Sequence record: OR352938.1
Source of the DNA: Escherichia phage AV108
DNA length: 64,000 bases
Reading direction: 5' to 3' (one strand)
Below the pieces are notes generated by a model that searched no databases, was not told where the DNA came from, and was given only the letters and a program-made list of their open reading frames with translations. A program made the position numbers and the translations under genes. This document shows positions 18,106 through 55,351 of the stretch, one piece after another. The first letter of the stretch is position 1, and each line of letters starts with the position of its first letter.

Positions 18106-19929
18106 TTATGATTGCATCCAAATTTTGCGTTGATCTGCATCTTCACTATAGAGCAAATCGAATAGCTCTTTATAGTTTTCCGGTAACGTGATGATCTCCA
18201 TTACAGGATCGTTGATCACGCGATGATAATCGGATTCTGTGAGCGATGCCAACCCTTTGATATATCGAATGTTATAACCTTTGATATTATCTCGGTCGTT
18301 CTCGAAATCTTCTAGGTCATAATACCATCGAACATCATCACCTTTCTTTGGTTCCGCAATGATAATAGGTGTTTTGATAAACCTGATTCGTCCATCTTCG
18401 AACAATTCAGGCCAACGTGCAAAGAAAGAGATCAGACTAGGTTTAATAGACCCGATCCCGTCAGTATCAGCGTCTGTCATAATCGCAATATTTTTGTATT
18501 GCATAACTTCCAATGCATCAACACCAAATTGCAAGCCAGTGATCGCCATGATGTTAAAAATTTCGGCGTTCTTAACGATCTTTGCCTCCGGTTGTTCCCA
18601 CGTTGTAAGAGTTTTGCCTCGCAACGGGAAACCGCCATGTAAATCTTGATCACGTACAGAGATCAGATAGTTGATTGCGGAATCACCTTCTGTCAAAAAC
18701 AGGGTAGTTTCTGCGTCAGTTCCAATAAGGTTAGCTTTAACGTGTTTTGCTACCTTAGCCCGTTTCGCTGCCTTCGCTGCCTTAGTCGCTGCCGCTTTAT
18801 CTGCTGCCTCTTTGCGTGCCAGGACTACAGCAATAATAGGCATAATAATGTTTTCTTTCTTCGCAATGACTTTAGCCAGCTTTTTAAAATCAAGATCAAT
18901 ATGACGCTTGATATCACCAGTTGGATTAGTCAAGCGTTCTTTTGTCTGTGAATCAAAACGGAGGTTAGGCAATTCACGAACAATCAAAATACAGGTCAAT
19001 CCAGACTTAACCGCAGCTTTAGTAACATCAACCTTATATTCTTTCTTGATTCGTTTTACAATCTCTTCACAAAGATCATCTGTCACGTAGTCTACGTGTG
19101 TTCCCCCGTTTTTGGTAAACAGACCATTAGCAAAGGATACTGATTTAAAACCTTCTCCCTCGACCGCCGGAACTAGAGCAAGTGAAAAGTTTTTATCTTC
19201 AATGACAAACGGATCATCATTGTATAGTTTAGCATAATCCTTGAACTTACTAACAATACGTTTACCATTAAACTTAAACGTGATCTTAGGAAAGATTACG
19301 CTCAATGATTGCAGACGATCATGAACAATATCTAAAACAGAGTTGTCCATCATATAACCTTCGAAGTGGTCGAAGTCTGGGCAAAATGTAACCTTTGTTC
19401 CCTTCAATTTTGATGGTTTTGACGACCATGTGATATTTTCAGCGCCGTTTGTGCACTGTACGGTCATTTCTGTTTCGCCGTCACATGTTACACCAGTAAA
19501 CCAATCGCTAAAGAAATTTGACAACGACGACCCCACACCGTTCATCCCTTGCGTTAATCGATTGGTATCATCAAAGTTAGACCCTGCTTTTGTTCGTGTC
19601 CATGCGGCTACAGGTTGCGGAATCTGCGTACCCTCTGGGGTAGTAACCATATGTTGAGGAATACCGCGACCATTGTCTGTTACCGTAACAATATTGTTTT
19701 GGATATCGACGCTAATCACATTGGCAAATTCAAAGTTAGTGCGGATCGCCTCGTCTACAGAGTTGTCGATGATCTCATCAATGATTTTAACCAGTCCAGG
19801 AACATATGAAATTTTTGTCCACTTACCGAACAGGAAACGTTGATGTTCTTCGTAAGTTGTTGATCCTATGTACATTCCTGCACGCTTAAGGACATGTTCA
19901 CGATCAGATAAAATGCGAAACTCACTCAT
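18106..19929 (-). CDS. 39: DNA topoisomerase II large subunit (GyrB-like), single polypeptide
   Basis: 607 aa; ILSDREHVLKRAGMYIGS and GHKL/TOPRIM features; longer than T4 gp39, consistent with the gene 60 portion being fused. Confidence 0.9.
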   Translation of the reverse strand: MSEFRILSDREHVLKRAGMYIGSTTYEEHQRFLFGKWTKISYVPGLVKIIDEIIDNSVDEAIRTNFEFANVISVDIQNNIVTVTDNGRGIPQHMVTTPEGTQIPQPVAAWTRTKAGSNFDDTNRLTQGMNGVGSSLSNFFSDWFTGVTCDGETEMTVQCTNGAENITWSSKPSKLKGTKVTFCPDFDHFEGYMMDNSVLDIVHDRLQSLSVIFPKITFKFNGKRIVSKFKDYAKLYNDDPFVIEDKNFSLALVPAVEGEGFKSVSFANGLFTKNGGTHVDYVTDDLCEEIVKRIKKEYKVDVTKAAVKSGLTCILIVRELPNLRFDSQTKERLTNPTGDIKRHIDLDFKKLAKVIAKKENIIMPIIAVVLARKEAADKAAATKAAKAAKRAKVAKHVKANLIGTDAETTLFLTEGDSAINYLISVRDQDLHGGFPLRGKTLTTWEQPEAKIVKNAEIFNIMAITGLQFGVDALEVMQYKNIAIMTDADTDGIGSIKPSLISFFARWPELFEDGRIRFIKTPIIIAEPKKGDDVRWYYDLEDFENDRDNIKGYNIRYIKGLASLTESDYHRVINDPVMEIITLPENYKELFDLLYSEDADQRKIWMQS

Positions 19930-24378: not shown

Positions 24379-24897
24379 TTAGTAGCCGCGTTCTTGACGG
24401 GCGAAGTTTTCAGCATTTTTCAGATAGTACAGCTTGAAGATATCCTTAGCGGTTAAACCTAAGCCCAGCATTTTAATCAGCACAAAATGCCAGATATCGA
24501 TCAATTCCATCACAATTTCGGTTTTATCGTCATCTGACAGATCAGCAAATTTACGCGCTCGTGCTTCGCCGTGGTTCTTCTTCCACACTTTAGTAATTGC
24601 GCTTGCATCTTTGCCATTTGACATGCCACCCAGGGCAACATAAAGTTCTCGTGTCTCGTCGTCGATTGCGTCATCCCACAACTTCATCCAGTCAAGGATC
24701 TCCCCGCAAGTTTCCAGCTTATCAGGATGCATTACCCACTCAAATTTATCAGCTAGTGCGACCTGTAATCCTTTTTGCATATCTAACATTACTTGCAGCG
24801 GATCTTTACCGCTAGTGATTGCCTCGGAATACGCAATACCAGCTTTAGACATAGTTTCATCATTAACAAGACCAGCACAAGAATTAAATTCACTCAT
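24379..24897 (-). CDS. putative dCTPase/dUTPase-like all-alpha NTP pyrophosphatase (gp56-like)
   Basis: Start taken at MSEFNSCAGL; helix-rich, DPLQVMLDMQ, ELIDIWHFVL motifs resemble MazG/gp56-type enzymes; by eye only. Confidence 0.45.
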   Translation of the reverse strand: MSEFNSCAGLVNDETMSKAGIAYSEAITSGKDPLQVMLDMQKGLQVALADKFEWVMHPDKLETCGEILDWMKLWDDAIDDETRELYVALGGMSNGKDASAITKVWKKNHGEARARKFADLSDDDKTEIVMELIDIWHFVLIKMLGLGLTAKDIFKLYYLKNAENFARQERGY

Positions 24898-24907
24898 AAT
24901 AAACCTC

Positions 24908-25471
24908 TCAAATAACATTAAACACTGCAAATTCACCGTGATACTTATACGCATAGTCATTATATACTATTGCGGCGTCTATTTCTAGGTCAAATTGTCC
25001 TATATAGACTTTATTTCCTTCATTGTCCCTTATCTGGGCGACCCATTTACCCGAACGACTATTATAATGCACTCCTTTAAAATTGCTAGTTTTAGTTTGG
25101 TTGTTTCTTCTCATATTTTGGGTATTCTGTTTTTGTGTCGCCTCTCTTAAGTTTGGAGGATCGTTGTTCTCTGGATTCCCGTCAATATGGTCAATGACAG
25201 GTGGGCAATACCCATGCTCTAAGAAGAATACTATTCTATGCACAAGCTCAAAATATTGTTTTCCTTCAAAAGAAAATGAGACTTTTAGGTGTCCGGCTGT
25301 GACTTTAGATACCTTTACTATATCACCAACCTTATAAAACTGGCCTTCTTTCGTCGTTCGGCTTGCTTTGCTGTTTGTTTTATGAATCAATATACCCCTT
25401 TCGTGTCTATATCTTCGACGTATTTCATCCTTTAATTCATCGCTCCATTCTTTGGCTTTCCTTACCCTCAC
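24908..25471 (-). CDS. free-standing HNH homing endonuclease with AP2 DNA-binding domain
   Basis: HNH motif HRIVFFLEHGYCPPVIDHIDGNPENNDPPNLREATQKQN; AP2-like FKGVHYNSRSGKWVAQI...YIGQFD...EIDAA. Confidence 0.75.
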   Translation of the reverse strand: MRVRKAKEWSDELKDEIRRRYRHERGILIHKTNSKASRTTKEGQFYKVGDIVKVSKVTAGHLKVSFSFEGKQYFELVHRIVFFLEHGYCPPVIDHIDGNPENNDPPNLREATQKQNTQNMRRNNQTKTSNFKGVHYNSRSGKWVAQIRDNEGNKVYIGQFDLEIDAAIVYNDYAYKYHGEFAVFNVI

Positions 25472-28144: not shown

Positions 28145-29557
28145 TTAGAAAGTCATGTTATTTGCTAGCTCGTCGAGTTTTTCTCGTTTCTCGGCTTGCT
28201 GTGCGCTTTGTGGTTTAACTTGTGCATTCTCCTGATCTGCGATCTGGTTTGGTACTTCATACCAACGCTGATTGCCTTTCTTCACACCAACGTTAAACCG
28301 TGAATAATAGTTCTTGTCACCGTAACGAGACTTGATCTGCTTCATGAGTTGGACGCCCATTTTAGCCAGGTCTTCGGTTTCGATAACACCCAACATAAAG
28401 TCGGCAGTAGCCGGAAGACCTGCTGATTCAGCGGTATCACTCATGTTAAGGTCGGAAGCATCCCAACCCGCGCGGGTAGTCTGTGCCGCAGTCCAACCAA
28501 CAACATCCCACTTAACAAAAAATCCTCGCAGTTCTTCCGCAATCGCCTTAACTAGTGTGTAACTATTTTCAGAGTATACACGCAAGCGAGACGATGCGCA
28601 AATCCCCAGATAGTCAACAATCACAACATCAGGTTTAAACTGTTTCTTGAGTCGCAATTCATTCATTAACGCCTCAAAGTGATTGGAGTTCGCGCCACCA
28701 GTCGGATACTGCTTGATCATCAATTTTCCAACCGGACGATCTCCGATCTTCTTATTCTTAACACGCTTCATGCGTGCGGAATATTCCGCAAAAGAAACAT
28801 TACCATTATCCAATTCATCTAATGTAATGTCAAGCAAGTTTGCGTCGATACGTTTTGCTACTACATGCTCCGCCATCTCCATTGAGATATACAATACATC
28901 ATAACCACATTCCATATAATCCGCAGCAAGAGAACACAAGCCAAGCGATTTACCAACGTTTACACCAGCAAGCAACACATTTAGCGTTTTTCTTTCCGCC
29001 CCTCCTTTCGTGATTTTATTCAACATCGGCAGCTTAAACGGGATCTTATTCGCCTTAGTCTGATATAGCAAGAATCGTTTTTCAAAGTCATTAAACCAGT
29101 CATGACCTACATCAGAATCAAACGTAATGGATAGTGCTTCCTGCATGATCTCAGGAATAGCACCCTCACTCGGCAATTTCTTATTCTGTTTCTCTTTTGG
29201 TAGTTGTGCGTTCGCCTGAATCTCTAGCGCCCGTGACATTGCATTATACATAGCGCGGTCACGAATAAATTTTTCGGTTTCCTTCATTAACCAATCAAGG
29301 TCTTCCGGTGTATTCTCCAGCGAATCGAGAAGAGTTTTCGCCCCTTCATATGTTGTCTGATTTCCTCTCTCCTTGTCTAAAGCAATCTGTAATGCAGTTG
29401 GCGTAGGAATATTGGAATATTCGTCTACGTGCTTTTTAATCAGCTTATAAATCAGTTTTTCTTCGTCTTCGGTGAAGTAGTCCGCTTTAAGGTGAGGCCA
29501 TACATTCGTAAAGAATGCGCCATTGTAAATCAACTGTGAAAAGATAGTTTTAATCAT
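28145..29557 (-). CDS. 41: replicative DNA helicase (DnaB-like)
   Basis: 470 aa; Walker A GVNVGKS; RecA-like fold features; T4 gp41 size and position. Confidence 0.9.
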   Translation of the reverse strand: MIKTIFSQLIYNGAFFTNVWPHLKADYFTEDEEKLIYKLIKKHVDEYSNIPTPTALQIALDKERGNQTTYEGAKTLLDSLENTPEDLDWLMKETEKFIRDRAMYNAMSRALEIQANAQLPKEKQNKKLPSEGAIPEIMQEALSITFDSDVGHDWFNDFEKRFLLYQTKANKIPFKLPMLNKITKGGAERKTLNVLLAGVNVGKSLGLCSLAADYMECGYDVLYISMEMAEHVVAKRIDANLLDITLDELDNGNVSFAEYSARMKRVKNKKIGDRPVGKLMIKQYPTGGANSNHFEALMNELRLKKQFKPDVVIVDYLGICASSRLRVYSENSYTLVKAIAEELRGFFVKWDVVGWTAAQTTRAGWDASDLNMSDTAESAGLPATADFMLGVIETEDLAKMGVQLMKQIKSRYGDKNYYSRFNVGVKKGNQRWYEVPNQIADQENAQVKPQSAQQAEKREKLDELANNMTF

Positions 29558-29871
29558 ACATAGCCCCCAACTACACGCATAACAAAGGTCTTGAGTTTAT
29601 ACCAGAAAGTTTCTTTTTTCAACTTTTCTTCTGCTTCTTTGATCTGCGCGGTTAACGCCTTAATGACGTGTGGATATACCACATCACGATCTGACGGCGT
29701 GGAGTAGTCGACCACAATACCTTTAGTGTCTGGATCGTATTCAACATTATGAATATAGACAATATGATGCTCTCCCTCTTCATCAACAATTATCAATTCC
29801 TGAATAACTGTCTTCATTGCTTCTTGAATCAAGCTGTGTGCTTCTTCTAAACTTGTTGGTTTCTTATCCAT
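29554..29871 (-). CDS. hypothetical protein (gene 40 position)
   Basis: 105 aa between uvsX and gene 41 with hydrophobic C-terminus; positional only. Confidence 0.35.
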   Translation of the reverse strand: MDKKPTSLEEAHSLIQEAMKTVIQELIIVDEEGEHHIVYIHNVEYDPDTKGIVVDYSTPSDRDVVYPHVIKALTAQIKEAEEKLKKETFWYKLKTFVMRVVGGYV

Positions 29872-29892
29872 AATATAATCCTCTCTAGATAT

Positions 29893-29916
29893 GAAAAAGG
29901 GGCACGTAGCCCCTTT
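29893..29916 (-). terminator. intrinsic terminator after uvsX
   Basis: ggggc-acgta-gcccc hairpin followed by T-run on the leftward strand. Confidence 0.55.
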
Positions 29917-29926
29917 ACTACCATTG

Positions 29927-30997
29927 TTATGCTAACATATCTTCGATTTCTTTGTCAACTGCTTCGTCGCTGATCACTTGCCCCAGCTTATAATGATCGT
30001 TGATTGCTTCGTTAAACTTATCGTTTGTCAGAAGTGGTTTCCAGAACTCAATGCTATTGGTTTCTTTAGCACGGAACTTGCGTTCTTCGGTTTCCATCTC
30101 TCCGGTCTCGGTATTCAGGATTGAACGAGAATACCAGCCGTTTGACGGTTTCACTACCCAGCCTAACTCTACAGCCAACTCCAGCAAACCGGAATAAGGA
30201 TCGATGCCACCGCTAAATGTTACGCTAATCGGGAACTTAGATTTTTCTTTAACGGTTCGTGATTTTTCCGCATTCAGGATAAAATCATAACCAGTAATTT
30301 CGGTTCCTTCTTTCTGCTGACGACGACCAATAATGAAAACTTCATTGGCTGAATACATCGCGCCAGTACCGCCGGACATAACGGTCTTACTAAACATTTC
30401 TTGCGTTTCGTAAGTGTGGTTAATAGCGATGCACGGGATATCATTCATAGTCAGATACGGCGTAACCATACGGAACAAGCCTTTAAGTGCTTTCGCTCGC
30501 GTCATATCCTGTGCGGATTTCTCATTAATCGCGTCTTCAACTTCTTTTTTACTTGCTAAGTTACCGATTGAGTCAATAAAGATGATCACTTTATCTTCAC
30601 GGGTAATTTGCTCAAGCTGGTTCATGATTTCAAATTTAAGTTCTTCGATGTTCTTGATTGGAACATGCACCACGCGATCAGGATCTACACCCATAGATTC
30701 CAGATATGCGGAAGTAATGCCAAACTCAGAATCAAAGAACAAGCACGCCGCATCAGGATTCTGTTTCATGTATGAACTAACACAAGTTAATCCCATGTTT
30801 GATTTAAAGTGCTTAGATGGACCAGCAAAGAAAATCAGACCAGATTGAAAGCCTTTTTTAAGATCACCTGAAAACGCAATATTCAGCATCGGGATCTTAG
30901 TGCGAGTATTTGTTTTTTCGTTAAAGAAGCTGGATTTAGACAGTACCGCAGTAGTTTTCAGGGTAGAGTTCTTTTTCAGTTTTTCCAGTACAGACAT
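29927..30997 (-). CDS. uvsX: UvsX recombinase (RecA-like)
   Basis: 356 aa; Walker A FAGPSKHFKS, Walker B IIFIDSIG, RecA-core features. Confidence 0.9.
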   Translation of the reverse strand: MSVLEKLKKNSTLKTTAVLSKSSFFNEKTNTRTKIPMLNIAFSGDLKKGFQSGLIFFAGPSKHFKSNMGLTCVSSYMKQNPDAACLFFDSEFGITSAYLESMGVDPDRVVHVPIKNIEELKFEIMNQLEQITREDKVIIFIDSIGNLASKKEVEDAINEKSAQDMTRAKALKGLFRMVTPYLTMNDIPCIAINHTYETQEMFSKTVMSGGTGAMYSANEVFIIGRRQQKEGTEITGYDFILNAEKSRTVKEKSKFPISVTFSGGIDPYSGLLELAVELGWVVKPSNGWYSRSILNTETGEMETEERKFRAKETNSIEFWKPLLTNDKFNEAINDHYKLGQVISDEAVDKEIEDMLA

Positions 30998-31008
30998 TAT
31001 TAATACCT

Positions 31009-31197
31009 CTATTCAGTTAATCCGTAATACTTTAATTGCTTCATTGTTATTCGATCTTTGTAGTGCTCTTGAATTAACTTTTTCATCGCATCAACATCGA
31101 TCGTCACAAATACTTCGTTGCTGTGATTTCCGTGAACTTTCTTGAAATGCTCTATGCCTTCCTCACGTTCACGTTTAATCTTTTCAATGTCTCTCAT
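31009..31197 (-). CDS. hypothetical small protein
   Basis: About 62 aa from MRDIEKIK; the only ORF between uvsX and gene 43. Confidence 0.3.
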   Translation of the reverse strand: MRDIEKIKREREEGIEHFKKVHGNHSNEVFVTIDVDAMKKLIQEHYKDRITMKQLKYYGLTE

Positions 31198-31241
31198 AGT
31201 ATATTTCTCACGTTGGCGGGTATCGTCACCCAACACCCGCC

Positions 31242-31269
31242 ATTATACACACTTTATCTTAAATGTCAA
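31242..31269 (-). promoter_or_regulatory. sigma70-type early promoter followed by 5' hairpin
   Basis: TTGACA-N16-TATAAT, then stable hairpin ggcgggt...acccgcc at about 31215-31241. Confidence 0.45.
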
Positions 31270-33937
31270 ACAGGTCAGTCAGAGAAGCAACTTTTTCATA
31301 TTGCAGCTTTGCAGCCGTGGTAATGTTCTCCAGTGGTTTGACGAAAGTCTTATTAAACAACAAAGGCCAGTCTAACCACTTTAACACCTCTGATTCAATT
31401 TCTGGTGGAATACGAGTACCAGACAACCAACCAAAACAGATTTCTCCAAACGGATTTCGATCTTTAAGCGGTACAATCATAACCTTCTCGCCTTCACGAA
31501 TCGGATCTAGTCCGAATTTTCGAGCATTACGATTATAACACAATACACTCTTAACCGCATACGGACAACCCTTAATCGGATACCCGTTTGAATCGCTGTA
31601 TTTCTGTAGGTTGTTTGCAGATGATACCGCAGCAACCTCAAGATAGTCAAGTTTTCTAAACTCTTGCTCAAAAATACCGTAGTATTCCTGCAATGACTCT
31701 TCCCCTTCCTGCAACATACGGCGAATACATTCTTTCAGTGATTTCTGACATGCTTTAGGGGTAGAGCTACGTTGCGTTTCCAATCCCATGATTTTTAGCT
31801 TAGGTTCAGCAAAGCGCGTTCCTTCCATATCCCAAACATTAAGAGCATAGCGTTTTTTACCCGTCCAGAATCCACCGATACCCGCAGATTTCAACGGAGG
31901 ACCAGCAATTGCCTCACGGTCCATAAACATCAAGTGCTCGTAGTTGTTCATGTACTCGCATAACTCGCGATATCCCTTGTCGATAATAGGTTCCATTCGA
32001 TGTTTACCGAAATTATCAAGGAAGTCAACAAGTTTTTCGGTATCATCGAAACGGTCTTCCCCGCCAACCTTATCAACAACATTGTTAACCAGCACATAAA
32101 CGGAGTCAGTATCACAATAACGAACATATGCAAAATCAGTTGTTCCACAAAGCTCGTTTAAGTATTCGTTAATCTTACGCTCAATCCACTGAATTGCAAG
32201 CTGACCGAACAGTGTGATCGCACTAGCGTTACGGAGATCATAAAAACGGAATTTAGGATTCCCCAACGCACCATAAAGGGAGTTGATCAAAACTTTTCGA
32301 GAAAGCTGGTTTGTATTGCACAAGATCGACTCGTCTTTACATTCTTCCAGCAATTTCTCTAAGGCATCTTTACTTAATGCAGAAAGCATCGATTTAAACG
32401 CTTCATCAAAGTCGTGACGCACTTCAACGCTATAGCTAATGGTTCCCCCATAAACATGATTTTCATCGTGTAGAATCGCTTTACATAGTTCAGCATTGCG
32501 ATCACATGCCAACATCATGTTTTTGTACTGCTTGCGCTGGTCGAATACCTTTTTAATCTCAATCGGTACGATACCATGAATATCTTTTCGATACATCCAC
32601 CCGTTAGGCGAGCAAGAATACTCATCACTCGGACGTGGTGCAGTTTTATTGATATATTCGTGCATCGGTGCAGCATCAAAAGATCCAGCGATTGTTTCAG
32701 GCGAAATATTAACCTGTCGAATAATAGATGGGTACAGACTTGTTAAGTCAAAGCTCATCATCCAACGGTAAGCATTCGGCACAGGTTCTTTTACGAATGC
32801 GCCCGGATAGGTCTGCTTAGGCTGTATCTTGTTCTCTGGTACTACTTTACCCTCAGCTTTCAGAGATCCGAAGATAATAGCATCCCATACTTTCATCGGG
32901 TTATAAACATGGTTAAATTTAATCTTTGCATAGAAACATAGGCTATACACCAGATCAATAAAACCACGCTTTTTATCAATCGCCAGAACACGATCAACGT
33001 CGCCGATGTTATAATCGATGTAAAGTTGATGGTTGTCATCACGCAATTTCTTTAACGGACCATCATAATCAACCTTACCTATTCCGGTCTCATATTCAGC
33101 AACATAATCTAAGGCATATGTTGGTTGAGTCGTAAAGCTAAATTTCTTGTATAAGTCAATGTAATCAAGGCTTTCGATCCCCATGATCGTAAAGGCTTCA
33201 CGCTCGTTGCCAAAATCATCCTGTGAGATTCGGGATTTAATCTTACCGCACGGGCTTAGACGGTTGGCGGTTCTACTTCCGAACTTATTACTGATACGTT
33301 TAATGATATACGGAATATCGAATGTTTCTGTGTTCCAGCCAGTGAAACCAACGGGTCGGTTTTCCTCAAAGAATCGGATGTATTCTAACAGCAATTCATC
33401 TTCTGTGTCATAAACGTTATAAACAACGCGCTCTACAATATCAGGTCGAAGAATAGACTTGCTTGCTTCCCAGATTTCACCGTTTTTTCCTTTCAAATCA
33501 AATACAAAGAAACGATCATGTACGGAATCATAATGCGTAATTGCATCGATAGGATATTTCGCTTCTTCTGGTTTAGGAAATTCCGGTGCAGTGACCTCGA
33601 TATCAACCCATGCTACACGGATTTTATTTCGGTCATATCGAATCTCGCCTTTATATGTATCGGACAGATAGGAGATGATAAAATCATCCATCCCTAGTGC
33701 CTCCTGCCCCATTTCTCCCATCTTTTTACGCCATTTGTTGGCCTCGTTCATAGATGGGAATTTTTTAGCAATGCAAGGCTTGCCATAGATATCTTTATAA
33801 TTCGTAACCATACCAGGCGCGGCATGATGAAATAAAGTTGGCGTATATTCAACGTAACGCTCTTGTTCTTGTCCAGCATCATCAATATAACGCTCGTAGA
33901 TCTTATCACCCACTCGCTCACATGACAGAAAATACAT
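31259..33937 (-). CDS. 43: DNA polymerase (family B)
   Basis: Exo motifs, YGG region, Pol C motif CDTDS; start placed at MYFLSCERVGDKIYERYID by alignment to the T4 gp43 N-terminus; track ORF extends 10 codons into the leader. Confidence 0.95.
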   Translation of the reverse strand: MYFLSCERVGDKIYERYIDDAGQEQERYVEYTPTLFHHAAPGMVTNYKDIYGKPCIAKKFPSMNEANKWRKKMGEMGQEALGMDDFIISYLSDTYKGEIRYDRNKIRVAWVDIEVTAPEFPKPEEAKYPIDAITHYDSVHDRFFVFDLKGKNGEIWEASKSILRPDIVERVVYNVYDTEDELLLEYIRFFEENRPVGFTGWNTETFDIPYIIKRISNKFGSRTANRLSPCGKIKSRISQDDFGNEREAFTIMGIESLDYIDLYKKFSFTTQPTYALDYVAEYETGIGKVDYDGPLKKLRDDNHQLYIDYNIGDVDRVLAIDKKRGFIDLVYSLCFYAKIKFNHVYNPMKVWDAIIFGSLKAEGKVVPENKIQPKQTYPGAFVKEPVPNAYRWMMSFDLTSLYPSIIRQVNISPETIAGSFDAAPMHEYINKTAPRPSDEYSCSPNGWMYRKDIHGIVPIEIKKVFDQRKQYKNMMLACDRNAELCKAILHDENHVYGGTISYSVEVRHDFDEAFKSMLSALSKDALEKLLEECKDESILCNTNQLSRKVLINSLYGALGNPKFRFYDLRNASAITLFGQLAIQWIERKINEYLNELCGTTDFAYVRYCDTDSVYVLVNNVVDKVGGEDRFDDTEKLVDFLDNFGKHRMEPIIDKGYRELCEYMNNYEHLMFMDREAIAGPPLKSAGIGGFWTGKKRYALNVWDMEGTRFAEPKLKIMGLETQRSSTPKACQKSLKECIRRMLQEGEESLQEYYGIFEQEFRKLDYLEVAAVSSANNLQKYSDSNGYPIKGCPYAVKSVLCYNRNARKFGLDPIREGEKVMIVPLKDRNPFGEICFGWLSGTRIPPEIESEVLKWLDWPLLFNKTFVKPLENITTAAKLQYEKVASLTDLFDI

Positions 33938-33969
33938 AATATAAACTCCTTCACTTACGAAAGACACTC

Positions 33970-33998
33970 ATTATAGGGGAATCGACTTAGTTTGTCAA
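33970..33998 (-). promoter_or_regulatory. sigma70-type promoter of gene 43
   Basis: TTGACA-N17-TATAAT; AAGGAG RBS 7 nt before the proposed start. Confidence 0.55.
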
Positions 33999-34019
33999 TA
34001 CCCCTATCCCATCAGTATC

Positions 34020-34382
34020 TTAGCGTCCGATCTGATATTTCTCGATCAGCGTCCACTCTTCTTTCTGTTTGAAAGACAGTACACGGAAATTATTAACTTC
34101 GGTAGTTTCAAAATCACTATCAATCAGGGTACACAGATTCCACTGCGCAAGAAGTTTTGCAATGTTATTACGGCGCAATTCATCTTCCCACGTCATCTTA
34201 ACACTACGACCATCTAATTTCAACAACTCCTTGAAATGAACGATGTAATAGCGCCCTTTCTTCTGGAGAATATGACAAGACTGATACAGAGTCTTGTCTC
34301 GATTGTTGGCAATGCCGCAGCGGGTTAAAGTCTCCTTAATTTTAAGGAAGTTTTCAGGACTAATCAAATTAATTTCAATCAT
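34020..34382 (-). CDS. regA: translational repressor RegA
   Basis: Near-identical motifs to T4 RegA (TLTRCGIANNRDKTLYQSCHILQKKGRYYIVHFKE; NNFRVLSFKQKEEW). Confidence 0.9.
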   Translation of the reverse strand: MIEINLISPENFLKIKETLTRCGIANNRDKTLYQSCHILQKKGRYYIVHFKELLKLDGRSVKMTWEDELRRNNIAKLLAQWNLCTLIDSDFETTEVNNFRVLSFKQKEEWTLIEKYQIGR

Positions 34383-34383
34383 T

Positions 34384-34962
34384 TTACCACCTTTCTATAA
34401 TCTTTTTAAGTCGTTTCCTTTCTGTCTGATTCTTAGTAACACCCGCCAAAAGTTCATCGGTCGCATACGGTTTAATGTGCTTCAATAACTTGTCCATATA
34501 TCCCTTTTCATTAGCCAAATCGAGATAAAACCTGGCGTCATCCATATTTACACAATATGCTTTCGCCACTGCCATTAAAACCAATTTTTGGTCCAATTCT
34601 TCTGTTAGTTTAGCCCATTTACCGTATCGTTTCCCCTTAGAAATACTCTGTAAGAGATAATCAAAATGCATTTGATCTGGGAGGCCATGACCGATTAAAT
34701 TCATCACATACGAGCTATATAGGCAATCTGCGTGCTGGGAAAGAGCGGTGTTAATCCATCTCTGGTTATATGCAGAATTATTCCCAACATTAACGCGCTG
34801 TTTATCTAAGGTGATATGATCCATCAGAGCAAATAATGCATTGTCGGTTTTCTCGGTGAACGTGTCCGCTAGTTCAGACACTTTTTCCCAATCACGAGAG
34901 CGCCATGCAATTTCATGCTCGTTTAATTGTGTATCATCTTCACCGAAAAATTGACCTAACAT
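34384..34962 (-). CDS. 62: clamp loader small subunit
   Basis: 192 aa between regA and gene 44; T4 gp62 size and position. Confidence 0.7.
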   Translation of the reverse strand: MLGQFFGEDDTQLNEHEIAWRSRDWEKVSELADTFTEKTDNALFALMDHITLDKQRVNVGNNSAYNQRWINTALSQHADCLYSSYVMNLIGHGLPDQMHFDYLLQSISKGKRYGKWAKLTEELDQKLVLMAVAKAYCVNMDDARFYLDLANEKGYMDKLLKHIKPYATDELLAGVTKNQTERKRLKKIIERW

Positions 34963-35951
34963 TATACGAACTCCAATTCAACCATTAATTGCATTAACAA
35001 AAAGACAATGTGAATCTCTTTATCAGCCGCGTGCGCAAACATCTGATTATTTTCACCGATAATCTCAGTGAGACGAATAATAGAAGCTGGCTTAACTTGA
35101 GTATACAACTCATTATAAAGTTTCTTGACAAATTGAGCGTATGTATTGGTATAGCGTGGCGCGAGTTTACGCACATTAGCAAACTGTTTAGTTTTAAGTG
35201 CTTCCACCACATCGGTTACTTCGGTATTGCTACTTTCGATAACCATGCTCAATACGCCAGCATCAATTTTACCATGTTTAGCGTAGCGGTCCAAAAGTTT
35301 CATTACGCGCCGGAAGTCTGGGAAGTTCTGCTTAACCAGTTCCGCCAATACGCGCATTTCTTCTACTGGCACACCTTCTTTATCAAGAATTGCTTTACAC
35401 CGGACGATCATTTCTTTCATCATGCGAAGCTGATCATCTTTAGTCGGAGATCCAAACGTGATGGGATCAAATCGAGATCGTAACGCCGGGATAATACCTT
35501 CTAGATCGTTTGCTGTGATAATGAATGTTACATTGTTTGAGTATGCCTCAGAGAAACTACGCAAGTGTCTTTGAGCGTCAGCCAACCCCGCTCGGTCATA
35601 CTCATCGATAATAACAACTTTGCCTTTTTCTCGTTTTTCTTCATCGAGTGATACACTCTGCGCAAAGCGTGTAATCTCATCGCGGATAAAATCAATCTTA
35701 CAATCTGCGCCGTTAACAAACAGATAATCAACACCCACATCTTCGCAAAGCGCCTTAGCAACGGTTGTTTTACCAGTACCCGGCGATGGGCTATGCAGAA
35801 TCATTGAAGGGATTCGGCCTTGCTTAACAATCTGCGCGAAGATCTTTTTATCTGCTTCCGGCAGAATACATTCAGAAATTGATTTCGGACGGTATTTCTG
35901 TTCCCACTGAAACTCATTTTCATTAACACTCAGCATATAATCACCTCTCAC
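34962..35951 (-). CDS. 44: clamp loader large subunit (AAA+)
   Basis: WEQKYRP, Walker A SPSPGTGKTT, DEYD, SRF sensor motif. Confidence 0.9.
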   Translation of the reverse strand: MRGDYMLSVNENEFQWEQKYRPKSISECILPEADKKIFAQIVKQGRIPSMILHSPSPGTGKTTVAKALCEDVGVDYLFVNGADCKIDFIRDEITRFAQSVSLDEEKREKGKVVIIDEYDRAGLADAQRHLRSFSEAYSNNVTFIITANDLEGIIPALRSRFDPITFGSPTKDDQLRMMKEMIVRCKAILDKEGVPVEEMRVLAELVKQNFPDFRRVMKLLDRYAKHGKIDAGVLSMVIESSNTEVTDVVEALKTKQFANVRKLAPRYTNTYAQFVKKLYNELYTQVKPASIIRLTEIIGENNQMFAHAADKEIHIVFLLMQLMVELEFV

Positions 35952-40814: not shown

Positions 40815-41840
40815 CTAACTTTTTGCGCTATTTACTTCGGCTAAAAGTTCATCAGAAATACGCTTGACCGCCGCAAGTTCTTCCGGTTCTAGGTTTTGTT
40901 CTTCCAGATATTCATAGACCATCTGAATAGTGCTTTTAACTTCAATAACACCTGTTTCCTGTGATGCGCTACTCTCCAGCTTATGGACCACTTTTAGCTT
41001 GTGCACAACGGCCTCTAACGCGCTTTCTAACTTAGTTAACCCATTATCAGCAACCGTTGCGATAAGACGCACACTAAGCCCCTTAAAGCGTTCTACATCG
41101 ATCTTATCATCTGACGGGTAAGTGATACGCACATGATAAGTTTTGTCATTCTGGATAAACTCTTTTTTGTGTGTATCGGTATCGAATACCCAAAACCCAC
41201 GCGGATCGTTTTCGTCACCCGCCGTTAGTGTGTATGGTGTACCAATATACGTTACGTTACCGCCATCGCTGATAGTATGAAAATGACCAGAAAACACTTC
41301 ACGGTATTTCTTGAGAAAGTCCGCGCTATAACCTTCGGATTTTAGCCCTTTATAGAAATAGTAACCGGACAATTCCCAATGGCCTACACAATATTCGCTG
41401 AATGAGTTTTGAATAAACTCTAAAATCTCTGATTTATTGTCATCGCAAAACCACGGAAACAGATCAAATGATACACCATCAAAGGTAACTGTTTCCGGCT
41501 TATCAATAACTTTAATACAATCATATTGGCTTAACACTTCACGCGGTGCGTTAGGCTGGATCTTGTTTCGTTTAAACATATCATGGTTCCCGACCGTGAT
41601 ATAACAAGTAATACCAGCCTCTTCCAGTAGCGGGATGACCTTAGTACGGTTAAATTTCATGGTTTCATGGGTAATTGCTTTTCGGCAATCAAACCAATCC
41701 CCTGTTTGAATCCATGTCTTAATATTATGCTCTTTGGAGTATTCAACCGCCTTCTTGATGGTATCAAGAATATACTCATGCACCCACGGATCATCGCCAC
41801 CGATACCAGTATGCAGATCACCTAAAAGCAAAATTTTCAT
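40815..41840 (-). CDS. 47: recombination endonuclease subunit (SbcD/Mre11-like)
   Basis: Phosphoesterase motifs GDLH, GDWFD, GNHD, GHFH. Confidence 0.9.
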   Translation of the reverse strand: MKILLLGDLHTGIGGDDPWVHEYILDTIKKAVEYSKEHNIKTWIQTGDWFDCRKAITHETMKFNRTKVIPLLEEAGITCYITVGNHDMFKRNKIQPNAPREVLSQYDCIKVIDKPETVTFDGVSFDLFPWFCDDNKSEILEFIQNSFSEYCVGHWELSGYYFYKGLKSEGYSADFLKKYREVFSGHFHTISDGGNVTYIGTPYTLTAGDENDPRGFWVFDTDTHKKEFIQNDKTYHVRITYPSDDKIDVERFKGLSVRLIATVADNGLTKLESALEAVVHKLKVVHKLESSASQETGVIEVKSTIQMVYEYLEEQNLEPEELAAVKRISDELLAEVNSAKS

Positions 41841-41892: not shown

Positions 41893-41908
41893 AAAGGGAA
41901 ACCCCTTT
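41893..41908 (-). terminator. weak hairpin with T-run
   Basis: aaaggg-aaac-cccttt followed by T-run on the leftward strand. Confidence 0.25.
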
Positions 41909-41930
41909 CAGAGTCTCCCTTATAAAGCCA

Positions 41931-42218
41931 TTACAGCATACTTAATACCGTTTGCCGTGTACTAATCCACATAGCAGAAAGCAGTTCTGGCGTGTGTGGC
42001 TGTTTGTAGATATCACGTAATTTTCCGATAGCGTAGATATACGCATCACGATTATCATCGATGATAGCTTGTTCAGCCCACCGCTTAAGTCGTGCAATCT
42101 CTCGCGAGTTCTTACGCAAGATCTTTTCCGCTTTCTTAGCGGCTTTAGCCTCTAGTTCTGCTTGTACTTTGTCTACTTCATTCACTGCAATCTTGTCATG
42201 CTGTTCATCGTAAGTCAT
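41931..42218 (-). CDS. hypothetical protein
   Basis: 95-aa ORF, basic helical. Confidence 0.4.
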   Translation of the reverse strand: MTYDEQHDKIAVNEVDKVQAELEAKAAKKAEKILRKNSREIARLKRWAEQAIIDDNRDAYIYAIGKLRDIYKQPHTPELLSAMWISTRQTVLSML

Positions 42219-42219: not shown

Positions 42220-42453
42220 TTATTTTACCTCTGGGATATAATCAATTATTAAAGAAAATTCATCTTCTGATACATTATAGCTATGTGAGATTGTACCCGT
42301 CAAGACCTCAAGATCCGGTGATTTGATATTGCACGGATCGATAATCACCGGAACGCCGCAATCTCTCAAAAATAATTTGGCGAAATACGGCACGAGGTCA
42401 GTTTCAAACTCTGCTTCTTCCAGCAAACGGGAAATGTTAATTTTCAATCTCAT
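42220..42453 (-). CDS. hypothetical protein
   Basis: 77-aa ORF. Confidence 0.4.
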
Positions 42454-42970
42454 AAAATTGGTCCAGGCTAGGCAATTCCTCGGTCAATACATCTTCAACC
42501 TTTGGCGCTTTCGGTTTATTGACCGATTCCTCGTAGTTGTTGATTTTATCGTAAATGTCCTGTATGAATGCCTCATCAGCAATCTGGCACATATCAGCGT
42601 CGCGTTCGTCATATACATGATGCACAAAATATTTGTATTTTGCGGCTGTCGCTGTTCTCTCTTTTTTAATGCGCTGTACAAAAGCATTAAAGCACGCTTG
42701 CGTGATGTAAGCATGAGGATTTTTATACTTTGTCTCGTCAAAATTAATCAAACCCTTGACCGCCGCTTCGATTCCGTCGTCGATCATTTCTTCGCGCCAT
42801 GTTTGACTATAACCAGAAAAGTTAAAACGACGTGATAGATTTTTAGAGATTTGCATAATTGCTAGGCCGATTTGATCGCTCATTGGAACTTGCCGACCTT
42901 CTGCTGCAATTTGTTGTTTCCAACGGCAAATTTCTTCGTAAAGCTCTTTATTGTTTACATAATCAGACAC
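42437..42970 (-). CDS. 55: late sigma factor
   Basis: Strong match to T4 gp55 ([56 protein letters not shown]). Confidence 0.9.
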
Positions 42971-43010: not shown

Positions 43011-44480
43011 CTATTCCCCATTACCATTATACTTTCTTTGCTTAGTTATCCACACTCTAACCATCTCTACAGATTCGCCGTCAGACGGATCAAGAGTTTT
43101 TCCTTTTTTCTTCATGCGGTACTTAAATCCGTTAAATCTTGCATTCTCTTGCTCGTTAAAGTCGAACATCTTTTTAAATGATTTTCGCCCTTTACGCTCA
43201 CCGCATTCTAGCGGAATCATTCGGTCTGTTATTACATTGGCATTAGGCAGAAACGTTTTTAGATAATCAACCAACGCCCAATCAGGAACATATAGATTAA
43301 CATTCTCCTTGCTCTCGTTGTCTCTCAGGTTACAACGCAAACATAATTGAAATGCTGGTTCCAGATAATCAGACACATGACGCGCTTTCAAAAACTCGTT
43401 TGTCGGGAGATCGCAACTATTAGCAAGACCTTTTAAAATATCAATCTCCCATCGTTGAGGGTTAAAGCTGAACATCACAGCAACATTTTTATGATGAATG
43501 TAAGAGTTAAGACCATAAGATCCGTAAGGTATCCGCTCACCAATACCATTTGTGCACGCTTCACGGTCCCGATTCACGGTATAAATGAAGTCATCACCAC
43601 ATTCATTTTTAACCATATCAACAAGACGTTCAAAGGTATTGTTTGTTTCTGACTGGTGACGCGACCATCGTTCGGAGTCCGTCATAAGGATGATATTAAC
43701 TCTATCTGTATTTTTATACTCTTTGAAATATAGTCTGGATTCTAGCGCACTAGGAACAAAATCGCAATTTGCATAGTATCGTAGATACTTCCCACTATAT
43801 GTATCAAAGAGATTTGCACATGCTATCGTAACCTTTTTAAAGTCTCCCCACGTACCGTGTTTGTTATCGTTCAAGAAAACAATTTTCGACCCATTCTTCC
43901 GGTGTCCTTCGTTATGTTTTACCATAACGTTGATTTTCTTCTCTAATAACGCCTCATAAAGCCCTCTAAGAGAAGAATCGATCATATCAGTACCATCCTT
44001 TGCACTTTCTATCTTTTCTTTGATAGCGGCCTTCTCAGAGTCTTTTAGAACTAAGTTCTGTAGGCATTCCGATTCGTCGGCGATTGGTTCGCAATGCTTC
44101 GTGATAAGTTCAAGATTAGACTTAAACGGATACTCATTAAATTCAACCAGTTGAGGAACTTCATCAATGTAAAGAGCATATTCACCAAACATTTTTGAAC
44201 GTTCCATATTAGATAACGCTGTATGTGTAATGAATATCACATCAGCACCATCTTTAACTGATTGCATTATAGACGCTTGCACTGTCTTAAGGCTTCTTAG
44301 TCTTGTGCTATCAATCAAGACAGCACGACCGCCCATTCTTTTAAACTTATTGTAAGATTGTTCACTTAAAACACGAGATGGCGAAGCAATAACCGCTTTT
44401 TCTTTTGTCTCTAGGACGTGGGAAAGTATAGCATCAGTTTTCCCCGCCGCTGGCAATGCGATTAATGTTTCAATCTTCAT
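43011..44480 (-). CDS. P-loop NTPase of unknown function
   Basis: 489 aa; Walker A ALPAAGKT at residues 8-15, Walker B-like ALYIDEV near residue 105; no further assignment possible by eye. Confidence 0.55.
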   Translation of the reverse strand: MKIETLIALPAAGKTDAILSHVLETKEKAVIASPSRVLSEQSYNKFKRMGGRAVLIDSTRLRSLKTVQASIMQSVKDGADVIFITHTALSNMERSKMFGEYALYIDEVPQLVEFNEYPFKSNLELITKHCEPIADESECLQNLVLKDSEKAAIKEKIESAKDGTDMIDSSLRGLYEALLEKKINVMVKHNEGHRKNGSKIVFLNDNKHGTWGDFKKVTIACANLFDTYSGKYLRYYANCDFVPSALESRLYFKEYKNTDRVNIILMTDSERWSRHQSETNNTFERLVDMVKNECGDDFIYTVNRDREACTNGIGERIPYGSYGLNSYIHHKNVAVMFSFNPQRWEIDILKGLANSCDLPTNEFLKARHVSDYLEPAFQLCLRCNLRDNESKENVNLYVPDWALVDYLKTFLPNANVITDRMIPLECGERKGRKSFKKMFDFNEQENARFNGFKYRMKKKGKTLDPSDGESVEMVRVWITKQRKYNGNGE

Positions 44481-44947: not shown

Positions 44948-45206
44948 AAATCGCCCTCAGTTCTTTATAGCCTCCAATGTGCTCGTTGTCAATGAATATC
45001 TGGGGGTATACAAACCGGAGGCTCTTTGAGTTCAGCCTCCCCGCCAGTTCTTCAATCATATCACGGTCGGGAATAATGTCAACCCCGACCTGCTTGAATA
45101 CTGGTTTAAGTGTATACGGAATACCCAGATCATCCAGTAGCTTCATTGCACTAATACAACCATAACAATGATAAGCCTCTTTCGGTATGCCGTATATCTC
45201 GATCAT
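44937..45206 (-). CDS. glutaredoxin-like protein (NrdH/NrdC family)
   Basis: CYGC active site; YPQIFIDNEHIGGY glutaredoxin signature. Confidence 0.7.
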   Translation of the reverse strand: MIEIYGIPKEAYHCYGCISAMKLLDDLGIPYTLKPVFKQVGVDIIPDRDMIEELAGRLNSKSLRFVYPQIFIDNEHIGGYKELRAIYDY

Positions 45207-46214: not shown

Positions 46215-46226
46215 AATATATTCCCC

Positions 46227-47232: not shown

Positions 47233-47233
47233 C

Positions 47234-47743: not shown

Positions 47744-47879
47744 TTACCCCGAACTCGTTTACAATCTGCGCTTTATAGTAACCACCGCGAGATGCTAATA
47801 GATAAGCTGGGCTTAGGTATTCGTATTCACGGATTTCTACTTGTGCGTTTTCAGTTTCCCAAATCAGTAAAGTCCACAT
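47727..47879 (-). CDS. hypothetical small protein
   Basis: About 50 aa from MWTLLIWETENAQ with AGGAG RBS; track ORF starts inside the promoter. Confidence 0.3.
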   Translation of the reverse strand: MWTLLIWETENAQVEIREYEYLSPAYLLASRGGYYKAQIVNEFGVIEYEF

Positions 47880-54248: not shown

Positions 54249-54542
54249 TTAACCATTAATCTTGTTTTTGACTACAAAGGATCTGAACTCATCAAAACCA
54301 CCTATATAATCACCATTATAGAAAATCTGCGGCATGGTGGCAATAACTTCTACCCCTGCGCGATCCTGAATGTCGGCAATGATAGAATCAATCTTTACCG
54401 GACGACCGTTTTCGTCTACACCATCATTAACCGGAATGTAGATGTAAGGGATCTTACGCGATTCACAAAGGCGCTTTGCATTCTGGCAATACTTACAGTT
54501 GTAACCTTCAAAACCAAAAATTTCTACCATATTATACCTCAA
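54249..54542 (-). CDS. nrdC: thioredoxin/glutaredoxin NrdC
   Basis: CKYCQNAKRL active site and MPQIFYNGDYIGGFDEFR match T4 NrdC. Confidence 0.8.
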   Translation of the reverse strand: MRYNMVEIFGFEGYNCKYCQNAKRLCESRKIPYIYIPVNDGVDENGRPVKIDSIIADIQDRAGVEVIATMPQIFYNGDYIGGFDEFRSFVVKNKING

Positions 54543-55351
54543 TCTACGTTAGTTACATAAACTTCTTGCGTATCAGAAGACTTGCCACCTGAACGATCTA
54601 GGCAATAGGTCTTATTCAACAGGACGCAGTTTAGATCATTCCGCTTGATAAAGTCAAGAAGATGATCATTTACCTTTCCCTTATGATGCGTGACATTACT
54701 GATACCAAACTGAAAACCACGCGCCATAATAGATTCTACCCACTGATAGAATTTAATCTCTTCCTCGTCACTCCAGAACTTATTATATTCCGCAGAAGTG
54801 ATAAGATACGGCGGGTCCAAATAAACGAAATCACCTGGCAAGATCTCGATCTCGTCATATCGTCCAGAAGTAAAAATGATTCGACCGTCTTTGTTTTCTT
54901 CCTTAAAATTCAGGACACGCTCTACCGCGTTTTCGTTAAAAGTCCGGCGACCAAAATTAGCATTAAATTCTCCCTTTCGGTTATGGCGGTTAATGTTGCT
55001 AAAACTGTGCTGAATCAACACAAACAGCGATAGCGGATCTGGATTCTCGTTATACTTCTTACGAAATGTCATGTAAGCGTCTTTATCTTCGCGAGACAAA
55101 TCATTTTCGGCAATAATCCGCTTGATCGTAGAAACCGGATCAGGACACTCGTCAATCGCTTTGTACGCGTCAATTAAGCGGTGATCATAGTCATTAGCCA
55201 GCACATCCCCTTCGACGTACAGAGACACGCTCAAGCCTCCACAAAAGGCATCAACAAAGCGGTTATAGTGCTTAGGGAAATACTTACTAACACCTGGCAA
55301 TAGCTTTTCCTTATTGCCAGTATAGGGAATTAAACCTAATGCTTTCTTCAT
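54539..55351 (-). CDS. dam: DNA adenine methyltransferase (GATC)
   Basis: Match to T4 Dam: NRFVDAFCGGLSVSL (SAM binding), DFVYLDPPYLITSAEYNKFWS (DPPY motif). Confidence 0.9.
   Translation of the reverse strand: MKKALGLIPYTGNKEKLLPGVSKYFPKHYNRFVDAFCGGLSVSLYVEGDVLANDYDHRLIDAYKAIDECPDPVSTIKRIIAENDLSREDKDAYMTFRKKYNENPDPLSLFVLIQHSFSNINRHNRKGEFNANFGRRTFNENAVERVLNFKEENKDGRIIFTSGRYDEIEILPGDFVYLDPPYLITSAEYNKFWSDEEEIKFYQWVESIMARGFQFGISNVTHHKGKVNDHLLDFIKRNDLNCVLLNKTYCLDRSGGKSSDTQEVYVTNVD

Follow-up and report, generated by a model that had tools for sequence, protein, structure and literature searches.

Cytosine DNA among the relatives of T4

It is already known from published work that phages of the genus Krischvirus lack gene 42 and the glucosyltransferase genes and have cytosine DNA. 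RB49 contains neither hydroxymethylcytosine (hmC) nor glucosyl-hmC and its DNA is cut by HpaII and NheI (PMC4041780), and gene 42, alc and denB have been listed for phage groups that exclude the RB49 type (PMC2993671, Table 4). Canonical nucleosides were found by HPLC/MS in Krischvirus TB34 (PMC13390438), cytosine DNA in the genus is also supported by PMC6563267, and RB43 and RB49 are both capable of generalised transduction of cytosine DNA (PMC12115623, PMC8056088). Members of the genus have a GC content of about 40.5%, are tRNA-less and carry near-perfect sigma-70 early promoters with stem-loops, termed PeSLs (PMC6563267, PMC4122927). The Pseudotevenvirus phages RB43 and RB16, Aeh1, KVP40 and the cyanophages are also without the modification/exclusion network and probably have unmodified DNA (PMC2993671); these phages, likened to the DNA studied here by literature description, are placed in other genera and differ in their accessory genes.

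The window analysed here, a 64-kb stretch of the genome of Escherichia phage AV108 (OR352938.1), belongs to Krischvirus and is thus part of an RB49-like, 'pseudo-T-even' relative of T4. It is 95-98.5% identical in nucleotide sequence to genus members (58 database records, all Krischvirus-type), and is colinear in gene order with RB49, Phi1, JSE and GEC-3S, to which it is 95-98% identical. Across positions 29000-35000 the identity to both GEC-3S and Phi1 is 98.5%, which is also that of the best database match. The complete genome of Phi1 (164 kb) is colinear with the whole window, through positions 148720-164270 and then 1-49300, at 92-97% identity. The GC content of the window is about 40% (range 0.38-0.43), no tRNA genes were found within its 64 kb, and it holds nine perfect sigma-70 promoters, all on the minus strand, against 0.13 expected. 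A GC content of about 40%, the lack of tRNA genes and perfect sigma-70 promoters with stem-loops are thus common to the window and these four relatives, stem-loop folding in the window having been done for one promoter of the nine (31242-31269). Genes 56 and dam are likewise kept in all of them, and gene 42, the glucosyltransferases, alc and denB are missing. The differences amount to strain-level mosaicism only: gene 37 has a divergent segment, an HNH-AP2 homing endonuclease lies between genes 56 and 61 in seven of the 58 relatives, and RB49 itself has an extra HNH gene inside the 47-55 interval.

Two compact junctions

In T4 and in the window, genes 41, uvsX, 43, regA, 62, 44, 45, 46, 47 and 55 follow one another in the same order and orientation, with 33-65% amino-acid identity, and genes 56, dam, a-gt.4 and a-gt.5 are also common to both. 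The two differ in what lies between uvsX and 43 and between 47 and 55, intervals that in T4 are variable regions packed with modification genes and homing endonucleases. The original prediction held that beta-glucosyltransferase (b-gt), gene 42 and imm are missing from the first interval, where a single 62-aa open reading frame (ORF) parts the flanking genes, and that alpha-glucosyltransferase (a-gt) is missing from the second, which holds two small ORFs. Both observations stand. The layout of the ORFs and the annotation transferred from Phi1 agree that the 62-aa ORF is the sole gene between uvsX and 43, in a gap of 261 bp, compared with 3635 bp in T4, and tblastn with the T4 proteins finds nothing in the window that corresponds to segA, b-gt, 42, imm and imm.1, the genes of the T4 interval. 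The features of both junctions are collected in Table 1.

Table 1. Features of the two junctions and retained genes of nucleotide metabolism and methylation (positions in the window)
Feature	Position	Strand	Evidence
Gene 56 homologue, dCTPase/dUTPase family	24379..24897	-	51% identity to T4 gp56 full length, E 5e-53; Pfam dUTPase_2
uvsX, RecA-like recombinase, 356 aa	29927..30997	-	Pfam T4_UVSX_C E 4.7e-35 + RecA; 64% identity to T4 UvsX; Phi1 annotation
62-aa early ORF, Phi1 ORF025 homologue, phrog_12120	31009..31197	-	PHROG match E 7e-42
PeSL-type cassette (early promoter + stem-loop)	31214..31269	-	Sequence scan + folding
Gene 43, family B DNA polymerase, 892 aa	31259..33937	-	Pfam DNA_pol_B + exonuclease domain; 55% identity to T4 gp43 over 903 aa
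Perfect sigma-70 promoter upstream of gene 43	33970..33998	-	TTGACA-N17-TATAAT, 12/12
Gene 47, Mre11/SbcD-like recombination nuclease subunit	40815..41840	-	Pfam Metallophos; 56% identity to T4 gp47
Intrinsic-terminator-like hairpin, between a-gt.4 homologue and gene 47	41894..41921	-	12-bp stem then T run
T4 a-gt.4 homologue (DUF2654), 95 aa	41931..42218	-	Pfam E 1.3e-22; 44% identity to T4 a-gt.4
T4 a-gt.5 homologue (DUF5491), 77 aa	42220..42453	-	tblastn T4 a-gt.5 E 2e-7; Pfam E 3.7e-4, below gathering score
Gene 55, late sigma factor	42437..42970	-	61% identity to T4 gp55; Phi1 annotation
dam, D12-class N6-adenine DNA methyltransferase	54539..55351	-	Pfam MethyltransfD12 E 1.6e-30; 46% identity to T4 Dam

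The 62-aa ORF, to which the Pfam scan assigned no family, is 95-100% identical across the Krischvirus records and lies in the uvsX-43 interval wherever checked. It is preceded by a promoter that matches the consensus at 12/12 positions (TTGACA-N16-TATAAT, 31269-31242) and overlaps the end of gene 43; a 12-bp stem-loop comes next, at about 31242-31214 (-22.2 kcal/mol, z = -5.2). The same promoter/stem-loop architecture has been described for the PeSLs of RB49 and Phi1 (PMC4122927). Gene 43 itself likely starts at the ATG at 33937, which has a GAAGGAG ribosome-binding site in front of it and a perfect promoter farther upstream; position 33967, where the original prediction had ended the interval, is the upstream GTG of the maximal gene 43 ORF.

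The two small ORFs of the second interval proved to be homologues of T4 a-gt.4 and a-gt.5, which adjoin gene 55 in T4 too. Between gene 47 and a-gt.4, T4 has 47.1, a-gt, mobB, a-gt.2 and a-gt.3, all of which are missing from the window; the terminator-like hairpin sits in their place, and the gap from 47 to 55 is 596 bp rather than 3152 bp. Compact junctions of this kind might in principle arise through assembly collapse, or if a T4-like phage had suffered deletions in the laboratory. The orders uvsX - ORF025 - 43 and 47 - a-gt.4 - a-gt.5 - 55 are, however, common to the window, RB49, Phi1, JSE and GEC-3S, both junctions are kept at 95-99% identity in 58/58 independently sequenced Krischvirus records, and they hold organised signals in the form of a perfect promoter with its stem-loop, a conserved small ORF and a terminator. 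An artefact is thus effectively refuted and can be put aside as vanishingly improbable.

The search for hydroxymethylation and glucosylation genes

T4 gp42, b-gt, a-gt, imm, imm.1, alc, denB and arn were used as tblastn queries against the 64-kb window and the complete Phi1 genome. No match to gp42, b-gt, a-gt or imm was found in the window (best E 0.78 to above 10; 4.4 for gp42), and the only match to gp42 in the whole of Phi1 is td (E 0.01). For a-gt and b-gt the best E values in the window and Phi1 were 0.8-3.7, or 0.43-3.0 with more permissive settings, and all fell on unrelated genes. Neither the window nor Phi1 has a homologue of imm, imm.1, alc, denB or arn, and in Phi1 rnlA directly follows pseT.3 with no alc between them. 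Searches of the same kind show that ndd, asiA and motA are also absent here, so that the window is without all six of alc, denB, arn, ndd, asiA and motA, unlike T4. The flanking core genes were recovered in these searches at 33-65% identity to T4.

The T4 gp42 hydroxymethylase has a thymidylate-synthase fold in which an Asp replaces the thymidylate-synthase Asn at the position that governs base specificity. The Td of Phi1 is oversized (406 aa) and was considered as a disguised hydroxymethylase; this was rejected, since its motif (LGLPFNVASY) has the Asn and not the Asp of dCMP hydroxymethylases. It is the only protein of the thymidylate-synthase family in Phi1, a canonical Td with the dUMP-type motif, and no second Thymidylat_synt domain was found by Pfam among 74 unassigned Phi1 ORFs. 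Pfam and PHROG scans covered these 74 hypothetical ORFs, the window-specific ORFs and large ORFs without known function; in the ORF sets scanned, Pfam identified no glycosyltransferase, cytosine-C5 methyltransferase, TET/JBP protein or second thymidylate-synthase-like protein. Judging from these scans of the window and Phi1, neither appears to encode a recognisable enzyme for a different cytosine modification.

Other domains were seen in the same scans. They comprise a DEAD-box-like helicase ORF, an HNH-AP2 endonuclease, Dam, ADP-ribosyltransferase, Macro, CYTH and RlaP domains and a protein with GmrSD_N only.

The original prediction had left two alternatives, namely that the hydroxymethylation and glucosylation genes lie elsewhere in the genome, or that the cytosine is unmodified or differently modified. 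As T4-like genomes shuffle accessory genes between variable regions (PMC4122927), such genes could conceivably be found in the remaining 100 kb or so of the genome. The whole-genome search that had been proposed was run on Phi1, the complete and colinear relative, and gave no homologue of gene 42, a-gt or b-gt, nor of alc, denB or arn, either by tblastn or in the Pfam scan of unassigned ORFs; published surveys likewise report none in RB49-type genomes (PMC2993671, PMC13390438). Furthermore, DNA carrying glucosyl-hmC would not keep the signature of site avoidance described below, which T4 is without. It is therefore extremely unlikely that these genes are present outside the window. Of the second alternative, unmodified cytosine is favoured by the genus literature and by site avoidance, whereas a different modification finds no recognisable enzyme, Dam, which methylates adenine, being the one enzyme in the window recognised as modifying DNA.

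Retention of gene 56

Gene 56 is the sole member of the T4 hmC precursor pathway to have been kept. In T4, gp56 removes dCTP from the precursor pool. The gene is nearly universal, including among T4 relatives that have no gene 42 (PMC2993671). Most likely, the homologue is a dUTPase that feeds dTMP synthesis for a 60% A+T genome, together with Cd, Td and Frd, which relatives encode elsewhere in their genomes; it is unlikely that it excludes dCTP as the T4 enzyme does. A homologue as active on dCTP as T4 gp56 would fit poorly with cytosine DNA.

Avoidance of restriction sites

Palindromic sites in the window and in 74 kb of T4 were compared with third-order Markov simulations. Twenty-five of the 64 six-base palindromes are missing from the window, against a simulated mean of 1.0 (maximum 3), among them the sites of EcoRI, HindIII, ScaI, PstI and BamHI, and the total palindrome count is 710 where 1006 +/- 29 is expected. 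There are no EcoRI, HindIII or ScaI sites in the window, against about 20 expected for each, and none in the whole of Phi1 against 52 expected. In T4, by contrast, almost no avoidance is seen: 6/64 palindromes are missing, the total is 1192 against 1265 +/- 36, and the 74 kb contain 40 EcoRI and 43 HindIII sites. In eight large genes, Glu-Phe is never encoded as GAATTC (0/13) and Lys-Leu never as AAGCTT (0/40).

Such extreme avoidance of type II sites suggests a long exposure of the DNA to restriction enzymes with its cytosine unprotected. It provides independent evidence, from the window itself, for unmodified cytosine. T7 is a classic example of restriction-site avoidance. The phenomenon is general in phages with unmodified DNA (PMC6286503), and here, as in those phages, type II palindromes are strongly depleted relative to composition-based and Markov expectations. 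What differs is that the avoidance occurs here in a genome of the T4 type, and the best-known of its relatives rely on hypermodified bases instead. No published account of site avoidance in Krischvirus or RB49-like phages was found in the openly readable literature, subscription papers on RB49 and JSE lying outside that search.

A report of modified cytosine in the genus

Cytosine might instead be modified by a pathway that is not homologous to that of T4. In 2026, Krischvirus SAP was reported to carry 5-hmdC and alpha-gentiobiosyl/glucosyl-methyl-dC and to be sensitive to the type IV enzyme BrxU, although no responsible genes or mechanism were found (PMC13390438), and dozens of ORFs in the window are without known function, while many small ones across the genus fall into no recognisable family. 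Against this, seven Tequatrovirus phages that come from one collection with SAP share its modification profile, and TB34, a sibling 99.96% identical to SAP, is unmodified (PMC13390438); a mixed or swapped DNA preparation would be a simpler explanation. Moreover, RB49 DNA is cut by enzymes sensitive to cytosine modification (PMC4041780), the ORF scans revealed no thymidylate-synthase-like domain besides that of the canonical Td and no TET/JBP, C5-methyltransferase or glycosyltransferase domain, and the extreme avoidance of type II sites points to cytosine DNA that has gone unprotected for a long time. A non-homologous pathway in this phage is accordingly judged very unlikely. Slimmer still is the chance of a cryptic route to hydroxymethyl- or glycosyl-cytosine in Krischviruses, non-homologous and varying between strains; were this so, a genome without gp42 and the glucosyltransferases could still have modified DNA.

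A T4-type phage without hypermodified bases

Very probably, then, this is a Krischvirus phage that lacks the T-even hmC network, replicates with ordinary dCTP and has canonical cytosine in its virion DNA. Gene absences, synteny, genus and site avoidance come from the comparisons made here; for virion cytosine the basis is the literature on genus members, and relatives suggest that the absences would extend across the rest of the isolate's roughly 164-kb genome. The missing network comprises gp42 and the alpha- and beta-glucosyltransferases, Alc and DenB, which silence or attack cytosine DNA, and Arn, which protects hmC DNA. The regions that hold modification genes in T4 contain here no more than a small early gene flanked by a promoter and stem-loop in one case and the conserved a-gt.4/a-gt.5 pair in the other. 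Against type II enzymes, the phage would instead be protected by the near-complete loss of many six-base palindromic sites, probably achieved through synonymous codon choice, together with the phage Dam methylase. Thus, site avoidance appears to be a functional substitute for base modification.

It is already recognised that RB49-type phages with cytosine DNA can be attacked by type II restriction enzymes and targeted by CRISPR. They offer no targets to modification-dependent type IV enzymes and are capable of generalised transduction, which is relevant to phage therapy. The modest addition made here is the size of the restriction-site avoidance, which indicates how a phage of the T4 type manages without hypermodified bases, and which provides an argument, drawn from sequence only, relevant to the contested claim that one Krischvirus is modified.

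Compact junctions in the window

The hydroxymethylcytosine (hmC) network of T4, which comprises the dCMP hydroxymethylase gp42, the glucosyltransferases a-gt and b-gt, Alc, DenB and Arn, is missing here, and the junctions at which T4 carries part of it are compact, conserved and furnished with transcription signals. Genes were placed by Phi1 annotation, Pfam and tblastn with T4 proteins. The original prediction, that b-gt, 42 and imm are missing between uvsX and gene 43, and a-gt between genes 47 and 55, is confirmed at both junctions, and its account of the T4 intervals agrees with the T4 annotation. The uvsX-43 gap is 261 bp, against 3635 bp in T4 (segA, b-gt, 42, imm, imm.1), and holds a single 62-aa ORF. 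The 47-55 gap is 596 bp, against 3152 bp in T4 (47.1, a-gt, mobB, a-gt.2 to a-gt.5); its two small ORFs are homologues of a-gt.4 and a-gt.5, a conserved pair that adjoins gene 55 in T4 also. The proposed gene 43 boundary at 33967 is a real ORF boundary, being the GTG of the maximal ORF, but the likely start is the ATG at 33937, which is preceded by a GAAGGAG ribosome-binding site with a perfect promoter upstream.

Features of the window
Feature	Position	Strand
Gene 37	2923-5844	+
Topoisomerase large subunit (60+39)	18106-19929	-
Gene 56 homologue	24379-24897	
HNH_3 + AP2 ORF	24908-25471	-
uvsX	29927-30997	-
62-aa ORF	31009-31197	-
Promoter at gene 43 end	31269-31242	-
Gene 43	31259-33937	-
Gene 47	40815-41840	-
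Terminator-like hairpin	41921-41894	
T4 a-gt.4 homologue	41931-42218	-
T4 a-gt.5 homologue	42220-42453	-
Gene 55	42437-42970	-
489-aa ORF	43011-44480	-
phrog_5347 paralogues	45203-47232	-
frd.2-like protein, 392 aa	51598-52776	-
dam	54539-55351	
gp38-type adhesin	59769-60545	-
Nine perfect promoters	15133, 17091, 18075, 31242, 33970, 49069, 51574, 56944, 59695	-

A perfect promoter (TTGACA-N16-TATAAT) overlaps the end of gene 43 and is followed directly by a 12-bp stem-loop (-22.2 kcal/mol, z = -5.2) and then by the 62-aa ORF. The order matches the promoter-early/stem-loop (PeSL) units of RB49 and Phi1, which have been described as a means of shuffling small genes (PMC4122927). Perfect TTGACA-N16-18-TATAAT promoters number nine in the window, where 0.13 would be expected by chance, and match the early promoters (PeSLs) of near-consensus sequence reported from those two phages. 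The ORF itself belongs to phrog_12120, of no assigned function; it is at least 95% identical in 58 Krischvirus records and, wherever it was placed (the window, Phi1 and, by match coordinates, others), falls between uvsX and gene 43. A strong terminator-like hairpin separates the a-gt.4 homologue from gene 47.

Identity of the phage and conservation of the junctions

By megablast, 58 phage records match positions 29000-35000 at 95-99% identity, each covering at least 80% of the query; they are RB49, Phi1, JSE, GEC-3S and further Krischvirus coliphages. The first 25 kb give a similar result with greater mosaic variation. In local blastn the window aligns colinearly over its full length with Phi1 148720-164270 and then 1-49300 (92-97% identity), with only four short window-specific segments. 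A GC content of about 40% and the absence of tRNA genes, none being found in the 64-kb window, are Krischvirus traits (PMC6563267). Both compact junctions occur in 58/58 Krischvirus records, and are therefore neither an artefact nor a recent deletion. Two HNH endonuclease elements of relatives are missing from the window: an insertion of about 1.1 kb that interrupts gene 43 in Cognac, MIZ4 and MIZ5, and an additional gene that RB49 has between genes 47 and 55.

Other features of the layout were also observed. The gp38-type adhesin is encoded in the early region, far from gene 37, and the topoisomerase large subunit is encoded by a single fused 60+39 gene (607 aa), the Phi1 annotation being alike in both respects. 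Between genes 55 and 55.2, where T4 has no gene as large, the 489-aa ORF corresponds to hypothetical Phi1 ORF044 and has a weak N-terminal DEAD/DEAH-box helicase domain (E 3e-6). Four tandem paralogues of the uncharacterised family phrog_5347, each of about 160-180 aa, are encoded between nrdH and nrdG, and the frd.2-like protein contains repeats of a related domain (PHROG label ‘goF mRNA metabolism modulator’); no Pfam family was found for either the paralogues or this protein.

Search for the hmC network

It had been proposed that the hmC genes might lie elsewhere in the genome. T4 protein queries found no homologue of gp42, b-gt, a-gt, imm, imm.1, alc, denB or arn in the window or the complete Phi1 genome, nor of ndd, asiA, motA, 47.1, a-gt.2 or a-gt.3, while T4 flanking core genes scored E 1e-40 to 0 in the same search. 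As asiA, motA and ndd homologues are among those not found, the middle-transcription switch and nucleoid-disruption function of T4 appear to be missing together with the hmC network.

The sole gp42 match was Phi1 td, a weak and expected family similarity (E 0.01). In this family thymidylate synthases have Asn at the position where dCMP hydroxymethylases have Asp, and the Phi1 Td motif, LGLPFNVASY, has Asn. In the 406-aa product of Phi1 td (L004, a Phi1 segment, 47166-48386, outside the window) about 120 aa inserted in frame divide the thymidylate-synthase fold into two Pfam stretches; its catalytic Cys and its Asn specificity motif are both canonical. Pfam scans of 74 unassigned Phi1 ORFs, large unknown ORFs and window-specific ORFs revealed no glycosyltransferase, cytosine-C5 methyltransferase, TET/JBP protein or second thymidylate-synthase-like protein. 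Phi1 ORF187, also outside the window (L004:26736-27287; record 116448-116999), could be either a decoy or part of a weapon against hmC phages.

Some T4 genes are retained: the window has dam and a gene 56 homologue (51% identity to T4), and Phi1 has cd, td, frd, denA and gene 1. An ORF with HNH_3 and AP2 homing-endonuclease domains stands between genes 56 and 61; Phi1 and RB49 lack it, and only 7/58 Krischvirus records, TB34 and SAP among them, carry it. As a mobile insertion adjoining gene 56 it is comparable to segF in T4.

The absence of hmC genes is already documented for the genus. Gene 42, alc and denB have been tabulated in phage groups that exclude the RB49 type, with gene 56 nearly universal (Table 4 of PMC2993671). 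RB49 has neither the hydroxymethylase nor the beta-glucosyltransferase, and HpaII and NheI cut its DNA (PMC4041780). Krischvirus DNA has been described as containing cytosine and no hmC (PMC6563267), and generalised transduction by RB49 has been tied to cytosine DNA and absent hmC genes (PMC12115623, PMC8056088).

Restriction-site avoidance

Palindrome avoidance is extreme in the window and almost lacking in T4. Third-order Markov simulations were run for the window and T4.

Six-base palindromes and restriction sites
Measure	Window (64 kb)	Phi1 (164 kb)	T4 (74 kb)
Palindromes absent, of 64	25	20	6
Absent in simulations, mean (maximum)	1.0 (3)		1.7 (5)
Total palindromes, observed vs simulated	710 vs 1006 +/- 29		1192 vs 1265 +/- 36
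EcoRI sites, observed vs composition expectation	0 vs 20	0 vs 52	40 vs 25
HindIII sites, observed vs composition expectation	0 vs 20	0 vs 52	43 vs 25

The window lacks sites for EcoRI, HindIII, ScaI, PstI, BamHI, XhoI, NcoI, SacI, KpnI, SphI and PvuII, among others, with GAATTC, AAGCTT and AGTACT each occurring 0 times across 64 kb. In eight large genes GAATTC is used for 0/13 Glu-Phe pairs and AAGCTT for 0/40 Lys-Leu pairs; the sites have therefore been removed through synonymous codon choice. CCWGG is depleted to about 0.44, and GATC is over-represented 1.6-fold, an excess consistent with protection by Dam methylation. Because selection against type II sites works only on DNA that can be cut, this avoidance can be read, at the sequence level, as a sign that the cytosine DNA of the lineage has long gone unprotected. 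Restriction-site avoidance in general is well known (e.g. PMC6286503); no published account of it for Krischvirus was found in the literature searched.

One report is discordant. TB34 (OX001802.1), a Krischvirus, has canonical nucleosides, yet SAP (OZ034687.1), 99.96% identical to it, was reported to carry hmC and glucosyl- and gentiobiosyl-methyl-dC and to be sensitive to BrxU, without a genetic explanation (PMC13390438, 2026). Seven Tequatrovirus phages in the collection to which SAP belongs have a profile identical to its own (PMC13390438). Given this identity of profiles, the extreme site avoidance of the genus and the lack of candidate enzymes, a mixed or swapped DNA preparation seems likelier than a hidden pathway.

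Implications for Krischvirus replication

The original prediction had left a choice between hmC genes elsewhere in the genome and cytosine that is unmodified or differently modified. The Phi1 searches, the literature and the site avoidance stand against the former, and unmodified cytosine is strongly favoured. With virion DNA of Krischvirus members described in the literature as canonical cytosine, the phage would replicate with dCTP. The gp56 homologue would probably serve chiefly as a dUTPase, or feed dCMP/dUMP into Cd-Td-Frd for an A+T-rich genome, rather than exclude dCTP. Restriction would be evaded through site avoidance and Dam. The missing network is typical of the genus and was already known, and site avoidance would be the lineage's substitute for hypermodification.
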